Shown here: positions 44,671 through 64,000 of the stretch, in pieces | Numbering within the stretch: position 1 is the first letter of the stretch | Layout: every line of letters starts with the position of its first letter | NCBI GenBank assembly: GCA_038065655.1 | Contig: JBBTQO010000001.1 | Coordinates: forward strand, 2,517 to 66,516 | Origin: Patescibacteria group bacterium | GTDB lineage: Bacteria > Patescibacteriota > Minisyncoccia > Phycocordibacterales > WO2-35-19 | Reading direction: 5' to 3' | DNA length: 64,000 nucleotides | Made by a program: the position numbers and the translations under genes | Notes under the pieces: generated by a model | Told to the model about the DNA's origin: nothing | Databases searched by the model: none | The model's input: the letters and a program-made list of their open reading frames with translations, nothing else

Positions 44671-45738
44671 TTACATTCCCTCTTCTTTTAATTTTTGGAC
44701 CGCTTCGTTTTTGGATCTTTCGACCATAAATTTTACAGCCTCGTTCATATTTATATTTTGGATTTTTATGTTCGGTCTTTTGTCTTTAAAAACTCGGTAT
44801 ATTTCATCAGCAAAAGCTTGACCGATTGTCGGTACGCGGTCATAATCCATTATGATTATTTTAAATTTTTCAAGACCTGATAATATTCTGCGGGCTTGTG
44901 ATCTAGATATATGAATTCCGCCCATTGTGTATAAACGCACCCTTATTTCAGTCTTATCAAAACCATAATCGCCATCTTTCTCCATATCGGTATGTTCTTT
45001 AAAAATATCATTCAAGTGGCGGGTGTTGCTTGTATCAATGCGAAAAGTCACCCTGGTTCCCTGTTTTTGCCCTTTGGTTTTTTTAATAAAAACATCTTTT
45101 ATTTTATTGTTTACCGTTAACTCATAACCATAACTGTCCAATATAAATTCGTCCCCCGCTTTTGAGGTAAAAAATATACCCTCTCCGGAATGAAGCTTGG
45201 GGGCGGTTGTTGTTTTACCCTTCAATAGATCTTGGATTGCTTCCATTTCTGAATTTAATCTCCTTTTCTCCATAATATTTTTGAAAACTCCTACGCCAAA
45301 ATCATCAACTATAAAAAATAAAGTGTTTTTGTTTAAACCAACAGAGAATTTTATTTTTTCAGATTTTGAATGTTCAATGGCGTTATTAAACATCTCGGAA
45401 AAAGCGTATTCAAAAATACTTTTTATGTTTTCAGGAAATTTAGCCAGATTTTGAAAATTGTGTTCAATGTCGTCAAAAATTTTGTGTTCCTCTAGTTGCT
45501 TGTTTATCAATGTTTTTGAATAACTCGCTGGGATAAGACTGGGATTTTTTTGCAGATACTCCGCTGTGACATAAATAGCTGATCTGGTTGAGCCAATCTT
45601 CACAAGTTTTTTTTCGGTTACAAGTTTGGATATAAGTTTTGAGGCGTATTGCCTAGATACACCAAAATCACCAATAAAATCTATTGTTTTTATAGTTCCC
45701 TTTTTACTAGCCAGATTCAATATTTTTTGGGTGGTAAG
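44671..45738 (-). CDS. Fusion regulator: winged HTH + GHKL/histidine-kinase-like ATPase (RsbW-like) + STAS-like (DUF4325-like) domain
   Basis: Start chosen at MLTTQ. N-terminal wHTH (..FGVSRQYASKLISKLV..). HATPase N-box NAIEHS, G1 DDFGVG, G2 GEGIFF. C-terminal ~90 aa resembles STAS/DUF4325. Located immediately downstream of dnaJ. Confidence 0.55.
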   Translation of the reverse strand, partial: LTTQKILNLASKKGTIKTIDFIGDFGVSRQYASKLISKLVTEKKLVKIGSTRSAIYVTAEYLQKNPSLIPASYSKTLINKQLEEHKIFDDIEHNFQNLAKFPENIKSIFEYAFSEMFNNAIEHSKSEKIKFSVGLNKNTLFFIVDDFGVGVFKNIMEKRRLNSEMEAIQDLLKGKTTTAPKLHSGEGIFFTSKAGDEFILDSYGYELTVNNKIKDVFIKKTKGQKQGTRVTFRIDTSNTRHLNDIFKEHTDMEKDGDYGFDKTEIRVRLYTMGGIHISRSQARRILSGLEKFKIIIMDYDRVPTIGQAFADEIYRVFKDKRPNIKIQNINMNEAVKFMVERSKNEAVQKLKEEGM

Positions 45739-45809
45739 CATATGTAAACACAATTGTAAACCTATGGTTAGTGATTGTCAACCAATTGTCAACTAACTGT
45801 TAAATACTC

Positions 45810-54951: not shown

Positions 54952-55692
54952 TTAGTCGGTTAAATTGTTCCCAACGTCGGACGTTTGGATATCAAAATTG
55001 TTGGGGTTAAGCGATAACCATTCAAATATTTCTTTTTTTAATATTTTTGGATCTACGAAATATTCTGGAAAATCTTTTTTAGACAAAATTTCTTTTTCCA
55101 TTCTATTTTTCCCACAGTAATCTTGATAACTACTCCACCCATAATCTTCTAAAAACTTTTTTGCCTTTTCTATATCTTTGATACCATTTTCTTTCCACAT
55201 TGGATCAATAAGTTTTACTGGATTTAGATGAATGTAAGAAAAAATGTATTTTGAGTATGGATCAGTGTCTACATAAGAACCTTTAAAATTAGTTTCAAAA
55301 AGTCCACCAGTACGTTTATATTTTGTATTGAAATATTTTGAATAAGAAGTGCAAAGTTTTTTCATAAAAAGACTTATTCCGTTCCTTTTGTGTTTCTCAC
55401 TAATGTTGGACGTTTGTTCAGGGGAAATAGTTATGAGGAGATGAAAATGATTTGGCATGAGGACCCATGCACCGATTGAAACAATTGGTTTTCCTCTGTC
55501 AAATTCCCAAACATCTATTTTTCTTCTAACTATGTCCTCTCTAAAGTTAATATATTTTTTTGAGTTAGAGAGATATAGCATTTTTACAAATCTTTTTCTA
55601 TCATAATCATCAAGAAAAATATTTTGTTTACTATTTCCTCTATTATAGAGATGGTAAAACTCACCTTCTACAAAAGGTTCTTTTCTTTGCAT
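54952..55692 (-). CDS. Second REP-associated tyrosine transposase (RAYT; IS200-like Y1 transposase), distinct family from the one at 2690
   Basis: 246 aa; YHLYNRGN and HuH motif LMPNHFHLLITI; flanked by direct copies of cccaa(c/t)gtcggacgtttggatat (54962-54984 within its 3' end; 55713-55736 upstream of the start). Confidence 0.8.
   Translation of the reverse strand: MQRKEPFVEGEFYHLYNRGNSKQNIFLDDYDRKRFVKMLYLSNSKKYINFREDIVRRKIDVWEFDRGKPIVSIGAWVLMPNHFHLLITISPEQTSNISEKHKRNGISLFMKKLCTSYSKYFNTKYKRTGGLFETNFKGSYVDTDPYSKYIFSYIHLNPVKLIDPMWKENGIKDIEKAKKFLEDYGWSSYQDYCGKNRMEKEILSKKDFPEYFVDPKILKKEIFEWLSLNPNNFDIQTSDVGNNLTD
54962..54984. repeat. REP family-2 element (cccaacgtcggacgtttggatat) overlapping the RAYT-2 C-terminal codons
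   Basis: Near-palindromic core aacgtc-g-gacgtt; same sequence at 55713-55736; inverted doublet at 63598-63643. Confidence 0.6.
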
Positions 55693-55737: not shown

Positions 55738-57486
55738 TTATTCCAAAACTGCTTTGATGCGGCGGACGCCGAGAGAGACTGCTTCTTCTTTCAAAATTTT
55801 AAATTTACCGAGATCCTTTGTGTTAGAAATGTGGGGACCGCCGCAAAATTCCTTGGACCAAGCGGTCTCTAGCGAATCACCAACAAAGTAAATAGAAACT
55901 TCATTACCGTACTTATCACCAAAAGCGTGGACGGCGCCAGTTTTTTCGGCATCAATTTTTTTCATTACAATTTTATTGACCGGCAGATTTTCTGAAATTT
56001 TTTGGTTAACTAAATCTTCAACTTTTTGTTTTTCTTCATCTGTCATTTTGCGGCCAAAACCAAAATCAAAACGCAATCGCTCACTATTGATGTTGCTCCC
56101 CTTCTGCCTGATAGGTTCACCCAAAATAATTTCAAGAGCTTGGCGTAAAAGATGAGTAGTAGTATGAAGTTTTTTTGTTTCTTCTCCCGCATCCGATAGT
56201 CCGCCCTTAAACATACCAGCGCTGGAAGTACGTGAAAGTTCTTGATGTTTTTTTAATTCTTCATTAAATTTATTCTCATCAATTTCCTCTCCTTTTTCTT
56301 TAGCTAATTCCTTGGTGAGCTCTAGTGGAAAACCATAAGAAGTGAAAAGAGTGAATGGATCTACTCCCTTTTCAAATTCTTTCAAACCATTTTCCAAAGT
56401 TTTTTCAAATTTTTCTTCTTCTTGAGATAAATTAGATAAAACAAAATCTTTATTTTTGTTTAATTCCGGATAAACATCTTTATATATTTCTATTACAACC
56501 TCGGCAATTTCTTTGGTGAAAGATTTGAGACCAAGCTGTTTGCCGTATCTTACTGCGCGTCTAATCAATCGGCGCAAAACATAACCTTGGCCCGTATTGG
56601 CTGGAGCAATCCCCTTTTCATCACCTAAAATAAAAGCAGAAGCTTTTAAATGATCGGCGATAATACGCATAGCTCTCACATTTTGACCCCCATATTTTTT
56701 ACCAGAGAGTTTTTCTATTTTTTGCATAATAGGCCAGAAAAGTTCTGTTTTATAATTATCATCCAATCCGTTCATTACCGCCAAAGTTCTTTCCAGGCCC
56801 ATTCCGGTGTCTACATTTTGTTGGGTTAGAGGTTCAAATTTGCCACCAGATGTTTTGTTATATTGCATAAAAACATCATTCCAGATTTCCAACCATTGGG
56901 GGTTATCATCATTAAAACTCTTAGGTACTTCTTTTGGATCTCCTACCCAATAAAACATTTCGGTGTCGGGTCCACATGGTCCTGTTTTCCCCGCTGGCCC
57001 CCACCAATTATTTTTTTTGGACAATTTAGCTATTCTTTTTTCTGGAATTCCCAGAGATTTCCATTTTTCAAATGCTTCCTCATCAAAAGGAGCATCATCA
57101 TCTCCTTGGAAAACTGAAACAGCAAGTCTGTTTTTATCAAGGTCGAGCCACTCCTTTGAGGTTAAAAATTCAAAACTCCACTCAATGGCTTCTTCTTTAA
57201 AATAATCTCCGAGCGACCAATTGCCGAGCATTTCAAAAAAAGTGTGATGACTACCATCCCCGACTTCATCTATATCTCCGGTCCTAATGCATTTCTGAAC
57301 ATCAGCAAGTCTATTTCCGGAAGGATGTTTTTCGCCTAAAAGATAAGGAACAAGTGGATGCATACCTGCGGTAGTAAAAAGTACTGACGGATCGTTTTCG
57401 GGCACTAAAGAAGAGCTCGGGATTATTTTATGCCCTTTCCCTTCAAAAAACTCTAAATATTTTTTTCTGATTTCTGCCGGGGTCAT
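55738..57486 (-). CDS. alaS: Alanine--tRNA ligase, short form lacking the C-terminal C-Ala domain
   Basis: 582 aa versus ~870 in typical bacteria; N-terminal catalytic motifs (..FTTAGMHPLVPYL..), editing-domain HxxxH and C (..TTHLLRQAL.., ..FCGGPH..). Confidence 0.85.
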   Translation of the reverse strand: MTPAEIRKKYLEFFEGKGHKIIPSSSLVPENDPSVLFTTAGMHPLVPYLLGEKHPSGNRLADVQKCIRTGDIDEVGDGSHHTFFEMLGNWSLGDYFKEEAIEWSFEFLTSKEWLDLDKNRLAVSVFQGDDDAPFDEEAFEKWKSLGIPEKRIAKLSKKNNWWGPAGKTGPCGPDTEMFYWVGDPKEVPKSFNDDNPQWLEIWNDVFMQYNKTSGGKFEPLTQQNVDTGMGLERTLAVMNGLDDNYKTELFWPIMQKIEKLSGKKYGGQNVRAMRIIADHLKASAFILGDEKGIAPANTGQGYVLRRLIRRAVRYGKQLGLKSFTKEIAEVVIEIYKDVYPELNKNKDFVLSNLSQEEEKFEKTLENGLKEFEKGVDPFTLFTSYGFPLELTKELAKEKGEEIDENKFNEELKKHQELSRTSSAGMFKGGLSDAGEETKKLHTTTHLLRQALEIILGEPIRQKGSNINSERLRFDFGFGRKMTDEEKQKVEDLVNQKISENLPVNKIVMKKIDAEKTGAVHAFGDKYGNEVSIYFVGDSLETAWSKEFCGGPHISNTKDLGKFKILKEEAVSLGVRRIKAVLE

Positions 57487-57490
57487 GTGG

Positions 57491-57898
57491 TTATTTTATA
57501 TTATTTAAATCTCCATTTAAAACAATTCCATCAAAAGAAACCAATTCATCATTGATGTATTTTTGGTTTGGTAGGGGGTTGAGAATAAAAATCTTATTAC
57601 CATTATGGTGAGCAAAAGCCATTTCAATAAATGTATTGGCTCCGATATAATTTTTAATATCACCTTTTGTGTAATTTGCTACCAAAATGGCATCTGATTT
57701 CTCAATCTTATTTAAATGTTCGTTTACAAGTCCTAATCCTTTTTTGGCTTCAATCCGACTTTTTCCATCTTCGGACCAATAGTCTACCCCGACAACTTTT
57801 ATTGGCATAAATACTTCGTGACCGTTTGCTTTGAGCTGTTTCTGAAACCCAACCATTTCATCGAAAAATTTTATTGATCCGCAAATTGTTATTTTCAT
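57491..57898 (-). CDS. DNPH1/Rcl-like 2'-deoxynucleoside 5'-phosphate N-hydrolase / nucleoside 2-deoxyribosyltransferase family protein (copy 1)
   Basis: 135 aa; N-terminal KITICGSIKF (Rcl VYFCGSIRGG) and catalytic-Glu region NYIGANTFIEMAFAHHNGNKIFIL (Rcl ..GVGYELGRAVALGKPIL). Confidence 0.6.
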   Translation of the reverse strand: MKITICGSIKFFDEMVGFQKQLKANGHEVFMPIKVVGVDYWSEDGKSRIEAKKGLGLVNEHLNKIEKSDAILVANYTKGDIKNYIGANTFIEMAFAHHNGNKIFILNPLPNQKYINDELVSFDGIVLNGDLNNIK

Positions 57899-57901
57899 AT
57901 A

Positions 57902-58369
57902 TTAAATTATTTTTAATTCTTTAAACCATTCATACATTACCGGCTCAAGTCCGGGATTTTGGTTCCATTCTTCTTCTGGGATTTCTTTTTTGTTGTATCT
58001 TTCTGTTTTATTTCCAAGCTCCCTTATTTGATCTTTGGTGTACCAATTTGCCTGTTTGGTCTCACTTTCACTTCTTTCAATATTACCTTCTATATTAACT
58101 TGATATATTTTCCAATAATGCCAAGTGCCACTTTCTCTTCTACAATGGTTTTCTTTCTTGCCCTCAATGACCAATTTTATTTCTTTTGTATCTAGACCAA
58201 CTTCTTCTTTCAGTTCTCGCATCGCTGATTCTTCAAATGTTTTGTCTCCATCTACGTGACCTGCTGGAATAGCAAAACCAAAAGGAAATTTTGCTCTTTC
58301 AATTAACAACAATTTATCATCTTTCCAAACTAACATCCCTACACTTGTGTGGTCGCAAACTTTAGACAT
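57902..58369 (-). CDS. NUDIX hydrolase
   Basis: 155 aa; Nudix box GHVDGDKTFEESAMRELKEEVGL (G-x5-E-x7-REUxEExGU). Confidence 0.8.
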   Translation of the reverse strand: MSKVCDHTSVGMLVWKDDKLLLIERAKFPFGFAIPAGHVDGDKTFEESAMRELKEEVGLDTKEIKLVIEGKKENHCRRESGTWHYWKIYQVNIEGNIERSESETKQANWYTKDQIRELGNKTERYNKKEIPEEEWNQNPGLEPVMYEWFKELKII

Positions 58370-58700
58370 ATTTTTTTATATTATTTACATAAGCCATTCC
58401 CATTTCCATCAAACAGTTTCCACCGATATAATTTTGGACTCCTTTTTTCTCTAGATTTACAATAAGAACTGCATCGCTCTCAAGAATATGTTTGTAATGT
58501 TGGCGAATATAATCGTTTTGCTTTTTCCATTCTGCGTGTTCACCAAGAGAAAGTGCTTCTACGATTTGTTGTTTATCTCCGCGAATATGAGCTTCATAAT
58601 CTGGATGTATCCAACCATCATAACCAAACTCACACAACTCATCTTTGTATTCAACCATTTCTTTTATAAAACTATTGCTCCCTAAAACATATATTTTCAT
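58362..58700 (-). CDS. DNPH1/Rcl-like nucleoside 2-deoxyribosyltransferase family protein (copy 2, paralog of 57491-57898)
   Basis: 112 aa; MKIYVLGSNSF N-terminus and NYIGGNCLMEMGMAYVNNIKKYV Glu motif; paralogous to copy 1. Confidence 0.55.
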   Translation of the reverse strand: MKIYVLGSNSFIKEMVEYKDELCEFGYDGWIHPDYEAHIRGDKQQIVEALSLGEHAEWKKQNDYIRQHYKHILESDAVLIVNLEKKGVQNYIGGNCLMEMGMAYVNNIKKYV

Positions 58701-58795: not shown

Positions 58796-60064
58796 ATGAA
58801 TTACAAAAAAAAGGTTTTAAAAAATGGTTTGAGGATTGTAGTAGTACCCATGAAGGGCTCACCTTCGGTTACTGTTATGTCACTTATTGAGGCCGGTTCA
58901 AAATACGAAAACAAACAAAATAATGGTATTTCACATTTTTTGGAACATATGTGTTTTAAGGGGACGAACAAGAGAACCAAGGCTGGAGATATCGCTAAAG
59001 AATTTGATTCTCTTGGCGCTCAAAATAATGCTTTTACTGGCCCGGAAGTAACCGGTTATTGGGGCAAAGCACACAAAAAACATACAGATAAAATGTTGGA
59101 TATTACCGCTGATATGTATTTGAATCCAACTTTTCCTGAAAAAGATTTGGAGACTGAAAAAGGAGTAATAGTAGAAGAAATAAATATGTACGAAGATTTA
59201 CCTCAAATACTTGTAAATGAAGTTTTTGACAAACTTCTATATGGAGACCAACCGGCCGGATGGAGTGTCGCTGGTACCAAAGAAAATGTTCGCTCGTTTA
59301 ATAGGAATGATTTTATAAATTACAGGAAACAGCATTATGTGGCTTCTGCGACTACTATTGTTGTTGCTGGCGATGTGGATGAAAAAGATATATTTAAAAA
59401 AGTGGAAAAATATTTTGCTAATATCCCGAAAGGCAAGAAAACAGCTAAGAAAAAAGTTATTGAAAAACAAACATCACCAGCGGTAAGTGTCAAATTTAAA
59501 GAAACTGACCAGACCCATTTGGTTTTGGGAGTGCGGGCTTTTGGCCTTTATGACAAAAGAATACCAGTTCTTAATTTGTTATCGTCTATTTTGGGTAGAG
59601 GTATGAGTTCTCGACTTTTCCAAAAAATGAGATATCAACTTGGCATTTGTTATTATGTGAAATCTCACATTGAAAATCTTACCGACCATGGCTATATGGC
59701 TATCTCTGCTGGAGTTGATTCAAAAAGAGTTGGAGAGGCCATTAAAGGGATTTTAGAAGAGCTTACAAAAATCAGAGATGAAAAAGTTCCGGAAGAAGAA
59801 TTGCGTAAGGTTAAAGACCTTGTTATTGGAAGAATGTATCTAAGTTTGGAATCTTCAGATGCTTTGGCCAACTTTTTTGGCGGTCAGGAAATAATGAAAG
59901 AAAAAATAAAAACACCAAAAGAACTAGAGGAAGAAATTGAAAAAATAACTACCGCTGACATAGCAAAAGTGGCAAAAGAAGTTATCCAAAACAAAAAACT
60001 CAACCTTGCTATTGTTGGTAAATATAATGATGAATCTCGCTTCAAAAATATTCTGAAAGTTTAA
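58796..60064 (+). CDS. M16 family zinc metallopeptidase (insulinase/pitrilysin-like)
   Basis: 422 aa; inverted zinc-binding motif HFLEHM (HxxEH) and downstream E (..EE..). Confidence 0.8.
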   Translation: MNYKKKVLKNGLRIVVVPMKGSPSVTVMSLIEAGSKYENKQNNGISHFLEHMCFKGTNKRTKAGDIAKEFDSLGAQNNAFTGPEVTGYWGKAHKKHTDKMLDITADMYLNPTFPEKDLETEKGVIVEEINMYEDLPQILVNEVFDKLLYGDQPAGWSVAGTKENVRSFNRNDFINYRKQHYVASATTIVVAGDVDEKDIFKKVEKYFANIPKGKKTAKKKVIEKQTSPAVSVKFKETDQTHLVLGVRAFGLYDKRIPVLNLLSSILGRGMSSRLFQKMRYQLGICYYVKSHIENLTDHGYMAISAGVDSKRVGEAIKGILEELTKIRDEKVPEEELRKVKDLVIGRMYLSLESSDALANFFGGQEIMKEKIKTPKELEEEIEKITTADIAKVAKEVIQNKKLNLAIVGKYNDESRFKNILKV

Positions 60065-60670
60065 TTACAAATCTTTCAAAATAGCGAAGTCGGTTTTGAG
60101 TTGATCGAGGGTGTGGGAATTGTAGACGGCGACGGCAGGATGGTAGAGCGGAACGATTTTGATGGCGCCATAGGTAGCAGTGCCGTCAAAAACTTTGCCA
60201 TGATTTTGGCTTATTGGTTCCAGTTCAAATTCCAAACCGAATTTAGGCATTATGTAGTACATGGCATACCGACCGAGAGTAGCTATAATTTTGGGCTGTA
60301 TAATTTCAATTTGTCGATCCAAAAATGGTCCGTAAATTTCTATCTCTTCCGGTAGAGGGTCGCGATTCATTGGTGGTCGGTCTTTGACAATATTTGTTAC
60401 ATAAACATCTTCTCTTTTTATACCGACAGAATTTAAGAGTTCATCTAAAATTTGGCCAGCGCGACCACAAAATGGACGGCCCGTCTTTGCTTCGTTGCGG
60501 CCGGGCGCCTCGCCGATAAACATTATTTTGGCGGAATGGCTTCCCTCGCCTATCACCGGCAAATTTTTATTTTCAATTCTAAATTTATAAAGTGGCGACT
60601 TCTTCAACGCTACCACCTCATCTTTTATCTTTTTCATCAATTCCTTCCTTTCTTCTATAGTTTGGGTCAT
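60065..60670 (-). CDS. Uracil-DNA glycosylase, family 4
   Basis: 201 aa; family-4 motifs GEGSHSAKIMFIGEAPGRNE and FCGRAG, C-terminal HPA(A/V) region. Confidence 0.8.
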   Translation of the reverse strand: MTQTIEERKELMKKIKDEVVALKKSPLYKFRIENKNLPVIGEGSHSAKIMFIGEAPGRNEAKTGRPFCGRAGQILDELLNSVGIKREDVYVTNIVKDRPPMNRDPLPEEIEIYGPFLDRQIEIIQPKIIATLGRYAMYYIMPKFGLEFELEPISQNHGKVFDGTATYGAIKIVPLYHPAVAVYNSHTLDQLKTDFAILKDL

Positions 60671-60748
60671 GCTGGAATAATACCAGAGTTAACTAATTTT
60701 ATAAACTATTTACCTATTCGCACGAATTAGAGAATACAAAATTACTTT

Positions 60749-61378
60749 CTACTTTAATTTAACGAATGCAAAACCCGGATATTCAGTGAACTCAACTTTA
60801 TCACTTTCTTTTTTATGAATTCTAAACACAGATTGTCTTATCGGAATTACCATAACTCCTCTGGGTTTTAGAATTTTAACTAGATTTTTAGGAATTTCTT
60901 CAGCGGTGGCGTTTACCAAAATTCGGTCGAATTTTTCCTTCTCGCCAACGAATAATCGGCCGTCTTTGCATTTTATTTCCGCATTTGGGAAACCATATTT
61001 TTTTAAATTATTTTTTCCCATCCTCGCAAGTTCAGGGATGATTTCCAACCCAAGCACTTCTCCGTTCGGGACAAGATGAGCTATAAGAGCAGTCGTATAA
61101 CCAGATCCAGATCCGATATCAAGAACTTTATGATCCGGTTTTAAATCAATCAGTTCAAGCATGAAAGCAACTGTGGTTGGCTGGGAAATAGTTTGTCCAA
61201 AACCTATAGGCAAAGGATAATCTTCGTAAGCTTCATTTTTGTAATTAGTATTTACAAAATCTACCCGGTCAATTTTTTCAAATGTTTTCTTAATCCCAAG
61301 TGTCTGCAAGACCTTGGTCTCTTCTAAATGTCTAATTAATTGCTCTTTGGTATTCATTGGCGTATTTGCAATACTCAC
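60749..61378 (-). CDS. pcm: Protein-L-isoaspartate O-methyltransferase
   Basis: 209 aa; SAM motif VLDIGSGSGYTTALIAHLV and PIMT-type pre-motif ISQP. Confidence 0.8.
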   Translation of the reverse strand: MSIANTPMNTKEQLIRHLEETKVLQTLGIKKTFEKIDRVDFVNTNYKNEAYEDYPLPIGFGQTISQPTTVAFMLELIDLKPDHKVLDIGSGSGYTTALIAHLVPNGEVLGLEIIPELARMGKNNLKKYGFPNAEIKCKDGRLFVGEKEKFDRILVNATAEEIPKNLVKILKPRGVMVIPIRQSVFRIHKKESDKVEFTEYPGFAFVKLK

Positions 61379-62090
61379 AATTTGGATTGGCTTTGGGAAT
61401 GTCGTCAGAATCCAAACATTTTTTCATATTCATTAAGGTTTTTTCTACCCAATCATCTTTACCAGTGTAAGGAATAAGTTTGATATCAAATTCAAGTTTG
61501 CCGTCAAAAGCTTCCCTATCACGCTTGCCATTGCAATAAACAAAATAGCCGGTGTCAGAAACTTTTAAATCATTATGTCGTAAGAGCCACTGATAAACTT
61601 CCATTTGTCTTTTGTAGCCGTCTTGCCACTCGGCATCCAAATTTACTTCTTCATCTTTGCTAGTCGCTTTGTAATCAACCACTATTAATTCCCCGCTTCC
61701 TCCGTCAGCACCTTCGGCGTTTTTTTGCCAAATATCATCAACGGCGCCAAAAACCACAAAATTGGCTGGTTCAAAAAAGGCTTCCACACCTGTAAAATTT
61801 TCACGCCATTTTTCTATTCGTGTATCTTGAAATGGCACTGCGTCTATACCATAACTTTCCATAAGAGGATGGGGAGTTTTTTGTTTGCGATGAATATCAA
61901 ATTCTTTTTTAAGCAAGGTATCAACGGCACTATTTAAATTGAAAGGAAATCCTTGTGGCCGAGAAACACCGATTCGACGATCTAAATAAAAACATCTCGG
62001 GCACTCAACAAACAAATCAATCTTTGAGCGACTTACTTTAAAGGCTTCTTCTGCCTTTGGATTGTATAATTTTTTTCGGTAAAATGCCAT
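61332..62090 (-). CDS. PD-(D/E)XK superfamily nuclease with N- and C-terminal Cys pairs (Cas4/RecB-like fold; standalone)
   Basis: 252 aa; core ..GAVDDIW...IVVDYKATS.. (D...D/E-x-K); Cys motifs ECPRCFY (N-term) and NPNCEYCKY (C-term) suggest a metal/Fe-S site. Confidence 0.55.
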   Translation of the reverse strand: MAFYRKKLYNPKAEEAFKVSRSKIDLFVECPRCFYLDRRIGVSRPQGFPFNLNSAVDTLLKKEFDIHRKQKTPHPLMESYGIDAVPFQDTRIEKWRENFTGVEAFFEPANFVVFGAVDDIWQKNAEGADGGSGELIVVDYKATSKDEEVNLDAEWQDGYKRQMEVYQWLLRHNDLKVSDTGYFVYCNGKRDREAFDGKLEFDIKLIPYTGKDDWVEKTLMNMKKCLDSDDIPKANPNCEYCKYANEYQRAIN

Positions 62091-62091
62091 T

Positions 62092-62922
62092 TCACTTTTG
62101 AATCAAATCTATTTCGGCCAGCATTTTGGAAATTTTTTCGTCGGAAAGACCAGCCTGTTTGAGAATGTCGGGGTTGTCTTTGGCTTGTTTGCAAAGGACG
62201 ATGCCAGCCTGCATCAAAAGCTTTTCATCACTGGGAGTGCTTGAGTTGAGACAAGTAATAGGGTGCAAATGTGCTTCTTCAATCAGATCCTGCAAGTTGC
62301 CAACTTCTGGATAATTCCAACCGACTAATTTCATATTTCTGCATTTAGCGTACTTGATAGCGGATTCGGAAAATTTAGTATTGGTCACGAGCCAACCTTC
62401 GCTCATTTTTTTATTTTGACTAAACTGTTCAAATTCCTGATTTTCTAAATCATCCCATCTGGCTTTTATATAAAGCGCAATTTTGAGGTCTGATTTGATA
62501 CCGAGCTCATTGTGAAATTTGGCTTCAACAAAAATTAATTTTTCTTTGTTCCAAGCAACAATATCAATCTCGTGGTCGGCGCATTCTCCCTTAGCAATAA
62601 AATCAGTGGTGGTTTCAAACCCTTTGGCTCTGAAAATTTCTGCCACGAATTGTTCAAAAGGAAAACCGGTTGGACCAAGTTCCATCACTGCGCGACGAAG
62701 CGAATATCTAGCGGCGGCCGGGCTCTCTTCTTTGCCTAAAAGTTGAAAGGCGTGTCTGTAAATATCTCTAGTGGTATCACCGTCTTTGAGCTCATTTTCT
62801 ATTTGGCTAACAATTTTTTCAGTAATTTCTGAGCCGGCCTGAGCTCGCAATAAAGAATCTTTTAATTTTTGAGGGTTAAATTCTTCTCTTTCCCCTATTG
62901 CCTTTATTATATATTTTGCCAT
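62092..62922 (-). CDS. ATP-cone domain fused to Mrr-like restriction-endonuclease catalytic domain, with C-terminal HhH-like tail
   Basis: Start chosen at MAKYIIKA. ATP-cone (IIKAIGEREEFNPQKLKDSLLRA..). Mrr_cat-like core FVAEIFRAKGFETTTDFIAKGECADHEIDIVAWNKEKLIFVEAKFH (D...D-x..E-x-K). C-terminal LMQAGIVL..ILKQAGLSDEKI HhH-like. Confidence 0.55.
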   Translation of the reverse strand: MAKYIIKAIGEREEFNPQKLKDSLLRAQAGSEITEKIVSQIENELKDGDTTRDIYRHAFQLLGKEESPAAARYSLRRAVMELGPTGFPFEQFVAEIFRAKGFETTTDFIAKGECADHEIDIVAWNKEKLIFVEAKFHNELGIKSDLKIALYIKARWDDLENQEFEQFSQNKKMSEGWLVTNTKFSESAIKYAKCRNMKLVGWNYPEVGNLQDLIEEAHLHPITCLNSSTPSDEKLLMQAGIVLCKQAKDNPDILKQAGLSDEKISKMLAEIDLIQK

Positions 62923-62924
62923 CA

Positions 62925-63998
62925 TTAATCTATTATACCACCCCCCAAACAAATTTCACCATCATATAAAACCAAAGATTGACCGGGAGAGATGCCTATT
63001 TGAGGTTGGTCAAAAATGACTCTTGTTTGCCCGTCCTTGATTTGAATTTTGCATTTTATTTTTTCTTGACGGTATCGGATGCGACAAGATAAATTTTTGT
63101 TTGGGATTTTTCCGATTAAATTTATATCCTTGATAGAAATTTCTTGGGACAAATTTGACGACCGTCCAAAATGTCGTAACTCTTGTTTTGAACTTACTGT
63201 TATCAAGTTTTTTTCAACATTTTTAGCAATTACATACAAAGGCACTTCGCTCTCTGTTTTTTGGGTAATGGTAAAGCCGTGGCGTTCGCCGATAGTGAAA
63301 AAGAGAGCACCGTTGTGGTGGCCGATTATTTCCCCATCCAGATCTAAAACGTCACCTCTTTTTTGAGGAATATATCTGGCCAAAAATTCTTTCATATTAA
63401 TTTTGCCCAAAAAGCAAAGCCCTTGGCTATCCTTCCTTGTTTCTTGTGGCAGGCCAAATTTACCTGCAAGTTTTCGAACTTCTGATTTTTGCAGATGGCC
63501 GATAGGAAAAAGAATGTGTTTAAGTTGTTCTTGGGTTAAGGTCCAGAGGAAGTATGATTGGTCTTTGTTTTTATCAATACCTTCAAGAAGCTGATTTCCC
63601 AATGTCCGACGTTTGCAACGGTTCCCAACGTCGGACATTGGGGGCATTCTTGCATAGTGTCCGGTAGCTACAAAATCAGCGCCATTTTTTAAAGCAAATT
63701 TTAGAAAGTGGCCAAACTTTATTTCTTTATTGCACATCACGTCTGGATTGGGAGTCCGCCCTTGCCTGTATTCATCAATCATATAATCAACCACTTCTTT
63801 TTTATATTCTTTTTCTAAATCAAGAGTGATGAAAGGAATATTTAAAATCGCGGCCACCTTCATGGCGCTCCGCCTATCTTCCTTCCAACTGCAAGGATAA
63901 CCTTCTGGTGTCCAAGCCTTAATAAAAACTCCAGTCACATCATAGCCATCTTTTTGCAACAAAGTTACTGAAACAGCGCTATCTACTCCGCCCGACAA
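62925..63998 (-). CDS. mnmA: tRNA-specific 2-thiouridylase MnmA (5' end runs off the window), carrying an in-frame REP family-2 doublet
   Basis: PP-loop SGGVDSAV, ..GHYAR.., NKDQSYFL, C-terminal domain. The ORF-finder start is a TTG; the true start is likely beyond coordinate 64000. The insert MPPMSDVGNRCKRRTLGN is encoded by the palindromic repeat at 63598-63643. Confidence 0.85.
   Translation of the reverse strand: MSGGVDSAVSVTLLQKDGYDVTGVFIKAWTPEGYPCSWKEDRRSAMKVAAILNIPFITLDLEKEYKKEVVDYMIDEYRQGRTPNPDVMCNKEIKFGHFLKFALKNGADFVATGHYARMPPMSDVGNRCKRRTLGNQLLEGIDKNKDQSYFLWTLTQEQLKHILFPIGHLQKSEVRKLAGKFGLPQETRKDSQGLCFLGKINMKEFLARYIPQKRGDVLDLDGEIIGHHNGALFFTIGERHGFTITQKTESEVPLYVIAKNVEKNLITVSSKQELRHFGRSSNLSQEISIKDINLIGKIPNKNLSCRIRYRQEKIKCKIQIKDGQTRVIFDQPQIGISPGQSLVLYDGEICLGGGIID
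63598..63643. repeat. REP family-2 inverted doublet (perfect 16-bp arms cccaatgtccgacgtt / aacgtcggacattggg) inserted in-frame in mnmA
   Basis: Arms are exact reverse complements separated by tgcaacggttccc; 48 nt total, a multiple of 3, in a variable loop of MnmA between GHYAR and NKDQSYFL. Confidence 0.7.
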
Positions 63999-64000
63999 TC

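Follow-up and report, generated by a model that had tools for sequence, protein, structure and literature searches.

To our knowledge, work on ATP-cones has been confined to their part as the on/off switch of ribonucleotide reductases (RNRs) and of the repressor NrdR. In NrdR and in the reductase proteins NrdA, NrdB and NrdD the cone is fused to a Zn-ribbon or to the reductase itself, and it carries a K-R motif. The subject of this analysis – a gene that we call gene 1 – departs from these proteins on both counts: its cone is fused to a nuclease, and in its family the second basic residue of the motif has given way to Ala, Ser or Asn. Gene 1 lies within a 64,000-nucleotide stretch of contig JBBTQO010000001.1 from a Patescibacteria group bacterium (the window, by which we mean the whole stretch analysed). 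Its nearest relatives belong to Candidatus Zambryskibacteria (70-88% identity) and Kaiserbacteria (44-47%); the host is a Zambryskibacteria-like bacterium of the candidate phyla radiation (CPR).

Three further described systems invite comparison. AF1548 of Archaeoglobus fulgidus (Protein Data Bank (PDB) entry 1Y88) has in common with gene 1 both the Mrr_cat nuclease domain and the AF1548-like_C domain, but it lacks an ATP-cone: the alignment to gene 1 begins at residue 22 of the 199-residue AF1548 chain. The type IV restriction endonuclease Mrr belongs to the same catalytic family, Mrr_cat; however, Mrr carries a winged-helix reader (Mrr_N), whereas gene 1 does not, stands in a housekeeping context and is no member of the Mrr system. 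Finally, Can2, Card1, NucC and Cap4 are nucleases that sense a second messenger by way of CARF or SAVED domains. In gene 1 the sensor is an ATP-cone and the predicted ligand is an ordinary adenine nucleotide; the likeness is one of design principle only, with no context of clustered regularly interspaced short palindromic repeats (CRISPR) or of cyclic-oligonucleotide-based anti-phage signalling. In kind, gene 1 appears to be a ligand-gated PD-(D/E)XK nuclease with an ATP-cone as its sensor.

The reading that we favour, at a probability of roughly 0.5, makes the product of gene 1 an endonuclease of the AF1548 family that is metal-dependent, serves housekeeping and is under allosteric control by adenine nucleotides bound at its N-terminal ATP-cone. 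The gene and its parts, the last of helix-hairpin-helix (HhH) type, are as follows.

62092..62925, minus strand: gene 1, a 277-aa ATP-cone / PD-(D/E)XK / HhH protein of the AF1548 family; its ATG overlaps the mnmA stop (TAATG)
62677..62925, minus strand: ATP-cone domain of gene 1, residues 1-83, a beta-hairpin plus helices
62311..62676, minus strand: Mrr_cat-type PD-(D/E)XK core of gene 1, residues 84-205 (E91, D121, E134, K136)
62095..62310, minus strand: C-terminal helical tail of gene 1, residues 206-277, of AF1548-like_C / (HhH)2 type

An initial annotation, made from the sequence, had proposed precisely this architecture – an ATP-cone, an Mrr-like core and an HhH-like tail – and it is borne out by Pfam cut-offs, by alignment to 1Y88 and by an AlphaFold model. 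The Mrr_cat profile (PF04471) scores 43.4 bits against a cut-off of 21; the ATP-cone assignment, too, is upheld by its profile (PF03477; 29.8 bits against 25.8, over residues 13-85 of a 286-aa open reading frame (ORF)). Residues 92-272, comprising the nuclease and the C-terminal tail, align to 1Y88 with an E-value of 1.4e-30, the homology thus spanning both the nuclease and the C-terminal domain (PF22357) of the AF1548-like family. The catalytic residues are not lost: the E..D..ExK set – E91, D121, E134 and K136 – is invariant in 41 sequences 35-50% identical to the query, and likewise in 92 CPR orthologues. Averaged over those orthologues, identity to the window protein is highest in the nuclease (0.60), followed by the cone (0.50) and the tail (0.46). 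The profile search of gene 1 gave no match to the modified-DNA reader Mrr_N, the N-terminus being taken up by the ATP-cone.

The AlphaFold model, built on 62 homologues (predicted local distance difference test 90.9, predicted template-modelling score 0.82), matches AF1548. Further fold matches of the nuclease part are AspBHI (11.7), the repair nuclease NucS (11.2) and FokI (9.6), and MspJI, Can2, Card1, NucC and Cap4 are also among the matches of the model. The cone, which shows the N-terminal beta-hairpin and subsequent helical bundle expected of an ATP-cone, matches NrdR (11.0 and 10.5) and the cones of NrdB, NrdD and NrdA (9.3-10.0). The tail matches the HhH N-domains of RAD51 paralogues (8.3) and Pol X, and it probably binds DNA non-specifically.

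The case for gating turns on the residues of the cone. In NrdR of S. coelicolor the inner nucleotide is contacted by K50, R51 and E56, the base pocket is shaped by F58, and the outer nucleotide is contacted by K62 (PMC9110341). Alignment and motif register place K8 of gene 1 at K50 (K9 of E. coli NrdA), E14 at E56 (E15), F16 at F58 and K20 at K62 (K21), so that four of the five NrdR contacts are kept. K8, G11 and K20 are invariant across the 41 sequences of 35-50% identity. Among the 92 CPR orthologues conservation reaches at least 90% at K8, G11, E14 (83/92), K20, S24, T52 (86), Y56 (90) and Y74 (92/92), and also at a basic residue at position 77; F16 is a further conserved residue of the cone. 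Because the contact-equivalent residues are invariant or nearly so, the cone is evidently under purifying selection and not in decay. Most contact positions being conserved, nucleotide gating may reasonably be inferred. A profile of the family's cones, compared with PDB sequences, found NrdR and class III RNR at an E-value of 0.0025, the genuine ATP-cone matches spanning 0.0025-0.3; designed helical repeat proteins, the top matches, were dismissed as low-complexity artefacts.

RNR and NrdR offer an analogy for how gating would proceed. The pairing of cone domains would depend on whether ATP or dATP (or ADP or dADP) is bound; altered pairing would change the oligomeric state or the orientation of domains; and this change would expose or occlude the PD-(D/E)XK active site and the HhH DNA-binding tail. 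Such a logic of oligomerisation and occlusion is established for NrdR and for NrdB-linked cones (PMC9110341, PMC5794259). The effect would be to make nucleic-acid cleavage dependent on the nucleotide pool. The role served might be DNA maintenance or repair, in a block that includes a Cas4-like 5'-3' exonuclease, MGMT and a uracil-DNA glycosylase (UDG), or it might be the breakdown of nucleic acid for nucleotide salvage. A downstream nuclease – Cas4-like, or beta-CASP in Bacteroidota and Chlamydiota – would be a frequent but dispensable partner that processes the ends made by the endonuclease. Within this model we infer nucleotide binding, the direction of regulation, the DNA substrate and the cooperation of the second nuclease.

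All genes in the region around gene 1 lie on the minus strand, and its neighbours are these.

62925..63998, minus strand: mnmA, tRNA 2-thiouridine synthase, directly upstream of gene 1 (NCBIfam MnmA, 404 bits)
61332..62090, minus strand: gene 2, a 252-aa Cas4/RecB-like PD-(D/E)XK nuclease, CxxC...CxxC, a facultative neighbour
60749..61357, minus strand: pcm, protein-L-isoaspartate O-methyltransferase, overlapping the 3' end of gene 2, a variable insertion in the block
60065..60670, minus strand: family-4-type UDG, a conserved block member (profile match)

The TAA stop of mnmA, whose 5' end probably lies beyond the window edge, overlaps the ATG of gene 1 in gatTAATGATGGCAAAA. This overlap, together with an ATP-cone match that begins just past the ATG and a public database entry (P0001) for an identical 277-aa protein annotated as "restriction endonuclease [Patescibacteria group bacterium]", identifies the ATG at 62925 as almost certainly the true start. 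The TTG at 62952, which a mechanical ORF list had used to give a 286-aa ORF, was rejected in its favour. The initial annotation, which began the gene at 62952, was thus mistaken on this point; it was right as to the genes and the pcm overlap, while the gap of 2 nucleotides that it gave between genes 1 and 2 is of 1 nucleotide (gene 1 ends at 62092 and gene 2 starts at 62090). Since the PCMT match begins at residue 10 of a longer ORF, the most likely start of pcm is the ATG at 61357, and pcm would then overlap gene 2 by some 26 nucleotides. The start and stop overlaps indicate that gene 1 is co-translated with mnmA and the Cas4-like gene. A scan of 59900-64000 returned promoters and terminators in numbers no higher than in shuffled sequence. 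One promoter-like extended -10 site (GTGAAA-16-TG-TATAAT, 10/12 matches) occupies window positions 62932-62959 (minus strand) in the 3' end of mnmA, ending 7 nucleotides before the nuclease ATG; given those site numbers it may be due to chance. An antisense ORF inside the nuclease gene (window 62519-62746, plus strand) recurs at the same position in 57 related loci (cluster c2); most likely it is no gene, but a side effect of codon bias and of the conserved coding sequence.

Gene 2 had been annotated as a second PD-(D/E)XK nuclease with N- and C-terminal Cys pairs, and so it proves: PDDEXK_1 scores 44.2 bits against a Pfam cut-off of 22, and C30, C33, C238 and C241 are each retained by 96-98% of 46 orthologues. 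D118/D119, D139-Y-K141 and Q162..Y166 are invariant. The protein has both a Cas4/RecB-like nuclease fold and four conserved Cys, and a metal cluster ligated by these is putative. The Cys of Cas4 and AddB follow a 1+3 pattern; that of gene 2, unlike theirs, is 2+2 (CxxC...CxxC). Gene 2 also differs from Cas4 and RecB-family nucleases in that it misses the curated Cas4 cut-offs (PF01930, 18.2 against 22.7; TIGR00372, 27.8 against 65) and has no cas genes nearby. Neither cas1 nor cas2 was found among the recurrent neighbour clusters of 97 CPR loci, in which CRISPR arrays were not explicitly searched for.

These 97 loci comprise 16 genome loci, 80 metagenome loci and the window. The genome loci came from a single-protein contig scan that reached only Zambryskibacteria and Kaiserbacteria, the metagenome loci from a 12-sequence alignment; ORFs were clustered and the recurrent clusters annotated. 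A Cas4-like gene lies downstream of the nuclease in 46 of the 83 loci with enough sequence and in 31 of them follows it immediately. In the loci without such direct succession the first recognised gene after the nuclease is MgtC (15 loci), UDG (9), AlaRS (alanyl-tRNA synthetase; 3) or MGMT (1), the remaining 24 loci having another gene or none. The pairing is frequent but facultative. Of the nucleotide-gated nuclease pair proposed in the initial annotation, then, the gating is reasonable, most cone contacts being kept, but the pair is not obligate: the Cas4-like partner is present in 46/83 loci, and in other phyla a beta-CASP nuclease is found instead.

The CPR loci share a collinear block. 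Its upstream half comprises a sigma-region-4/HARE helix-turn-helix protein (c8), a 416-aa membrane protein, MltG (YceG), mnmA and the ATP-cone nuclease; there follow, variably, MgtC, Cas4-like, MGMT and pcm, and then UDG, PepF (itself variable) and AlaRS. Given enough sequence, mnmA lies no more than 800 nucleotides upstream of the nuclease in 63 of 70 loci and UDG no more than 4 kb downstream in 32 of 55, while pcm occurs in just 6 related CPR loci. Within Zambryskibacteria the identity of the nuclease to its orthologues equals or exceeds that of MnmA in the same loci (in locus L001, 84% for the nuclease, 68% for MnmA and 85% for AlaRS). An inherited collinear block and conservation like that of the housekeeping neighbours give gene 1 the profile of a housekeeping gene: it is probably vertically inherited, core-like in one CPR lineage and not part of a defence island.

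Two further genes recur in or near this block. A gene for an HD_3/YfbR-like 5'-deoxynucleotidase is present at L037:8821-9429, at L003:5956-6573 and in four other loci; in L037 it stands directly 3' of the ATP-cone nuclease, in the Cas4-like position. An MgtC-family membrane protein gene sits beside the nuclease in 22 CPR loci (for example L062:1701-2186), often between it and the Cas4-like gene, and an MgtC-family gene also occurs about 2.4 kb upstream of the homologue in the flavobacterium Psychroserpens ponticola (L100:3304-4572).

Outside the CPR the context is different. Family members occur in Chlamydiota and Bacteroidota (Criblamydia, Pontibacter, Chitinophaga, Psychroserpens and Saprospiraceae), and nine such loci were analysed: two plasmids and seven further Bacteroidota/Chlamydiia loci. 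The plasmids, from Pontibacter actiniarum and Criblamydia sequanensis, carry homologues 41-43% identical to gene 1, and on both the homologue is followed by the same three genes, encoding an MBL-fold hydrolase, a thymidine-phosphorylase-family protein and a ribose-phosphate pyrophosphokinase. This four-gene cluster is seen at L017:1972-6597 (P. actiniarum plasmid NZ_CP021236.1), at L018:7995-12602 (C. sequanensis plasmid NZ_LK031773.1) and at L102:7001-11648; we found no description of it. Found across unrelated phyla, it looks like a transferable nucleotide-catabolism or stress island.

In seven of the nine loci a beta-CASP/RMMBL nuclease lies immediately 3' of the homologue, counting an uncalled copy in Psychroserpens. 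Four of those loci contain the phosphorylase-like gene and three the ribose-phosphate diphosphokinase, the fourth locus ending within the phosphorylase gene. For the beta-CASP protein the best-scoring models are Cas14 and aCPSF1, both under the cut-off; the phosphorylase-like protein passes TIGR02645 (archaeal-type putative thymidine phosphorylase) but falls short, at 480 bits, of the 535 set as cut-off for the AMP-phosphorylase model; the kinase passes PRK07199. Other recurrent neighbours are Usp, a GAPDH-like protein, 2-hydroxyacid dehydrogenase, DeoC, MgtC, AAA_28, metal efflux and multicopper oxidase, and the Criblamydia locus additionally has phosphoketolase, glycogen phosphorylase and acetate kinase. 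There is, then, a clear link outside the CPR between the gene 1 family and nucleotide and pentose catabolism. The beta-CASP, thymidine-phosphorylase-like and Prs genes were searched for in the window and all CPR loci and none was found; conversely, the linkage to mnmA is missing from the non-CPR loci examined. Two unrelated sets of lineages thus have a second nuclease next after the gene, with a fold that differs between them – Cas4-like in the CPR, beta-CASP in Bacteroidota and Chlamydiota – and both Cas4/RecB-like and beta-CASP families are known for 5'-3' exonuclease action.

The genomes of CPR bacteria are minimal, and these bacteria rely on nucleotides that they scavenge. This lifestyle, the beta-CASP, AMP-phosphorylase-like and Prs genes and the YfbR-like deoxynucleotidase suggest a role in salvage, just as the Cas4-like, MGMT and UDG neighbours suggest one in repair. 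A tentative extension, which we advance while holding it to be doubtful, is that gene 1 is the catabolic mirror of RNR regulation: an adenylate/deoxyadenylate-sensing switch that would govern when nucleic acid is cut and passed, by way of a 5'-3' exonuclease partner, into nucleotide salvage or pentose catabolism. The route would run through the Cas4-like or beta-CASP nuclease to the AMP-phosphorylase-like enzyme, PRPP (phosphoribosyl pyrophosphate) synthetase and the 5'-deoxynucleotidase.

Several observations weigh against a nucleotide-gated housekeeping endonuclease. The Pfam score of the ATP-cone is just 4 bits over the cut-off. The phosphate-contacting Arg of the cone motif K-R-D-G is replaced in the gene 1 family: at the position equivalent to R51 (position 9; R10 of NrdA) 62 of 92 sequences have Ala, as does the window protein, 17 have Ser and 6 have Asn. 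With this Arg lost, the ligand or the mode of binding may differ, or binding may be weak. Synteny in the CPR may be mere inheritance and little informative on function, and no single role emerges from contexts as different as a repair-like block (CPR) and an island of metabolic or stress genes (Bacteroidota and Chlamydiota). An RNA substrate is possible, given a beta-CASP partner that resembles the aCPSF1 and Cas14 RNases and an mnmA whose product acts on tRNA. Lastly, AF1548 is a structural-genomics entry whose function is predicted only (PMC1821046).

The possibility of an RNA substrate leads to an alternative that we judge unlikely but worth serious attention, namely that gene 1 is a nucleotide-gated ribonuclease that takes part in the turnover of tRNA or rRNA, with the catabolism of ribonucleotides as the subsequent step. 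The tight coupling to mnmA, by proximity in 63/70 CPR loci and by stop/start overlap, is what one would look for, and yet that linkage does not extend beyond the CPR. There the beta-CASP partner scores best, under cut-offs, against RNase models, and the AMP-phosphorylase-like enzyme and ribose-phosphate diphosphokinase encoded downstream both handle ribonucleotide products; within the CPR, by contrast, the block holds DNA-repair genes (Cas4-like, MGMT, UDG). Some PD-(D/E)XK nucleases do cleave RNA, and two of these, Card1 and Can2, are among the fold matches of the model, but the HhH-type tail and the nearest folds (AF1548, AspBHI, NucS and FokI) are typical of DNA enzymes.

It seems to us distinctly improbable that the two nucleases are neighbours without a functional relation and that the cone, lacking a regulatory ligand, serves structure or oligomerisation alone; gene 1 would in that case be no more than a conserved housekeeping nuclease. 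Overlaps between unrelated genes are common in compact CPR genomes, and the Cas4-like gene is absent downstream in 37/83 loci and often separated by MgtC; but the appearance of another type of nuclease at the same position in separate lineages resembles non-orthologous replacement of a partner. As to the cone, the loss of the canonical phosphate-binding Arg and the marginal Pfam score would fit an unregulated module, whereas conservation of K8, E14, F16, K20, T52, Y56 and Y74 at 90-100% across lineages 35-50% identical overall would not.

A place in defence had been offered in the initial annotation as one option, DNA repair being the other. In the form that we weighed, gene 1 would be an anti-phage or anti-plasmid effector, restriction-like or acting by abortive infection, that is released when ATP or dNTP pools are perturbed, with the Cas4-like protein as a second effector. 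The fold invites the idea, its nearest matches including restriction enzymes (AspBHI, FokI, MspJI) and ligand-gated defence nucleases (Can2, Card1, NucC, Cap4), although gene 1 is without the Mrr_N reader of modified DNA. PADLOC-DB returned only weak matches, confined to the nuclease region and without partner genes, the best being to the candidate system PDC-S02 at 24 bits. Cas4 relatives are frequent in defence contexts, and some homologues are plasmid-borne beside an integrase or IS element; against this, the non-CPR neighbours are metabolic and stress genes and do not form defence islands. A neighbourhood check for methyltransferases or other defence genes came back empty: no DNA methyltransferase, no cas gene (cas1/cas2 included) and no recognised defence gene is a recurrent neighbour in the 97 CPR loci. 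Gene 1 is instead core-like and vertically inherited within a housekeeping block, with 70-88% identity among species and conservation at least that of MnmA. A restriction-modification reading was rejected, there being no DNA methyltransferase and the sole nearby methyltransferase, pcm, acting on protein (isoaspartate repair); so was a phage or viral origin, tblastn having given no match in 50,697 phage records and a pattern scan of IMG/VR no relatives. Defence is in our view very improbable, and DNA repair or nucleotide salvage fits better. We give hardly any credence to an NrdR-like nucleotide-sensing DNA-binding regulator without enzymatic activity, for although the cone is most similar to that of NrdR and the HhH tail could bind DNA, the full catalytic set E91, D121, E134 and K136 is invariant, which would be unexpected were catalysis lost, and the profile search found no Zn-ribbon or sequence-specific DNA-binding domain.

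Some other genes of the window deserve mention. At 57491-58700 (minus strand) proteins of 135 and 112 aa, whose genes flank a NUDIX hydrolase gene (57902-58369), match one and the same ORF in related loci (33-37% identity; L001, L012). Neither has a significant Pfam match, the 135-aa protein being faintly similar to nucleoside 2-deoxyribosyltransferase-like proteins (PF15891, E 0.07); the trio may be a deoxynucleoside/nucleotide salvage set, a few kb from the nuclease. The AlaRS gene (55738-57486, minus strand) encodes 582 aa, a short form conserved in related CPR loci, where a typical bacterial AlaRS has about 870 aa. A 246-aa ORF at 54952-55692 (minus strand) resembles IS200-like Y1 transposase below threshold (PF01797, 20.9 bits where the cut-off is 23) and may be a degenerate remnant of a mobile element. 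Finally, a 360-aa protein encoded at 44671-45753 (minus strand), regulator-like or defence-like, exceeds the cut-off for DUF4325 (STAS-like) and shows weak matches to a histidine-kinase-like ATPase and an AbiEi-like helix-turn-helix; its gene adjoins one of the F420-0:gamma-glutamyl-ligase family.

The copy of gene 1 in the window shows nothing unusual beyond other members of its family, and that family is large. An exhaustive HMMER search of 1.84 billion representatives gave 1,174 clusters (50% identity) at E <=1e-3 and 448 at E <=1e-30. Among the 150 matches listed almost all are of about 280 aa and matched over their full length, from which we conclude that the three-domain architecture is stable. 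Such proteins are labelled "ATP cone domain-containing protein" or "restriction endonuclease" in databases, and we found no study of an ATP-cone nuclease in the literature, which agrees with the view of the initial annotation that the architecture is annotated but uncharacterised.

Here, then, is a large family, core-like in one CPR lineage, that has no assigned function despite a crystal structure of a relative available since 2004. The pairing with a beta-CASP nuclease, often together with AMP-phosphorylase-like and PRPP-synthetase genes, occurs in the cultivable Pontibacter actiniarum and Psychroserpens ponticola and so makes the system experimentally tractable. If our reading is true, a nuclease under the control of an ATP-cone extends the allosteric logic of this switch from the making of DNA precursors to the cutting of nucleic acid, and a conserved nuclease gated by nucleotides would plausibly supply a piece missing from DNA maintenance or salvage in the CPR. 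Should gene 1 further prove to be a catabolic mirror of RNR regulation, it would be a core control point of the CPR scavenging lifestyle and, in Bacteroidota and Chlamydiota, part of a transferable stress or energy island.

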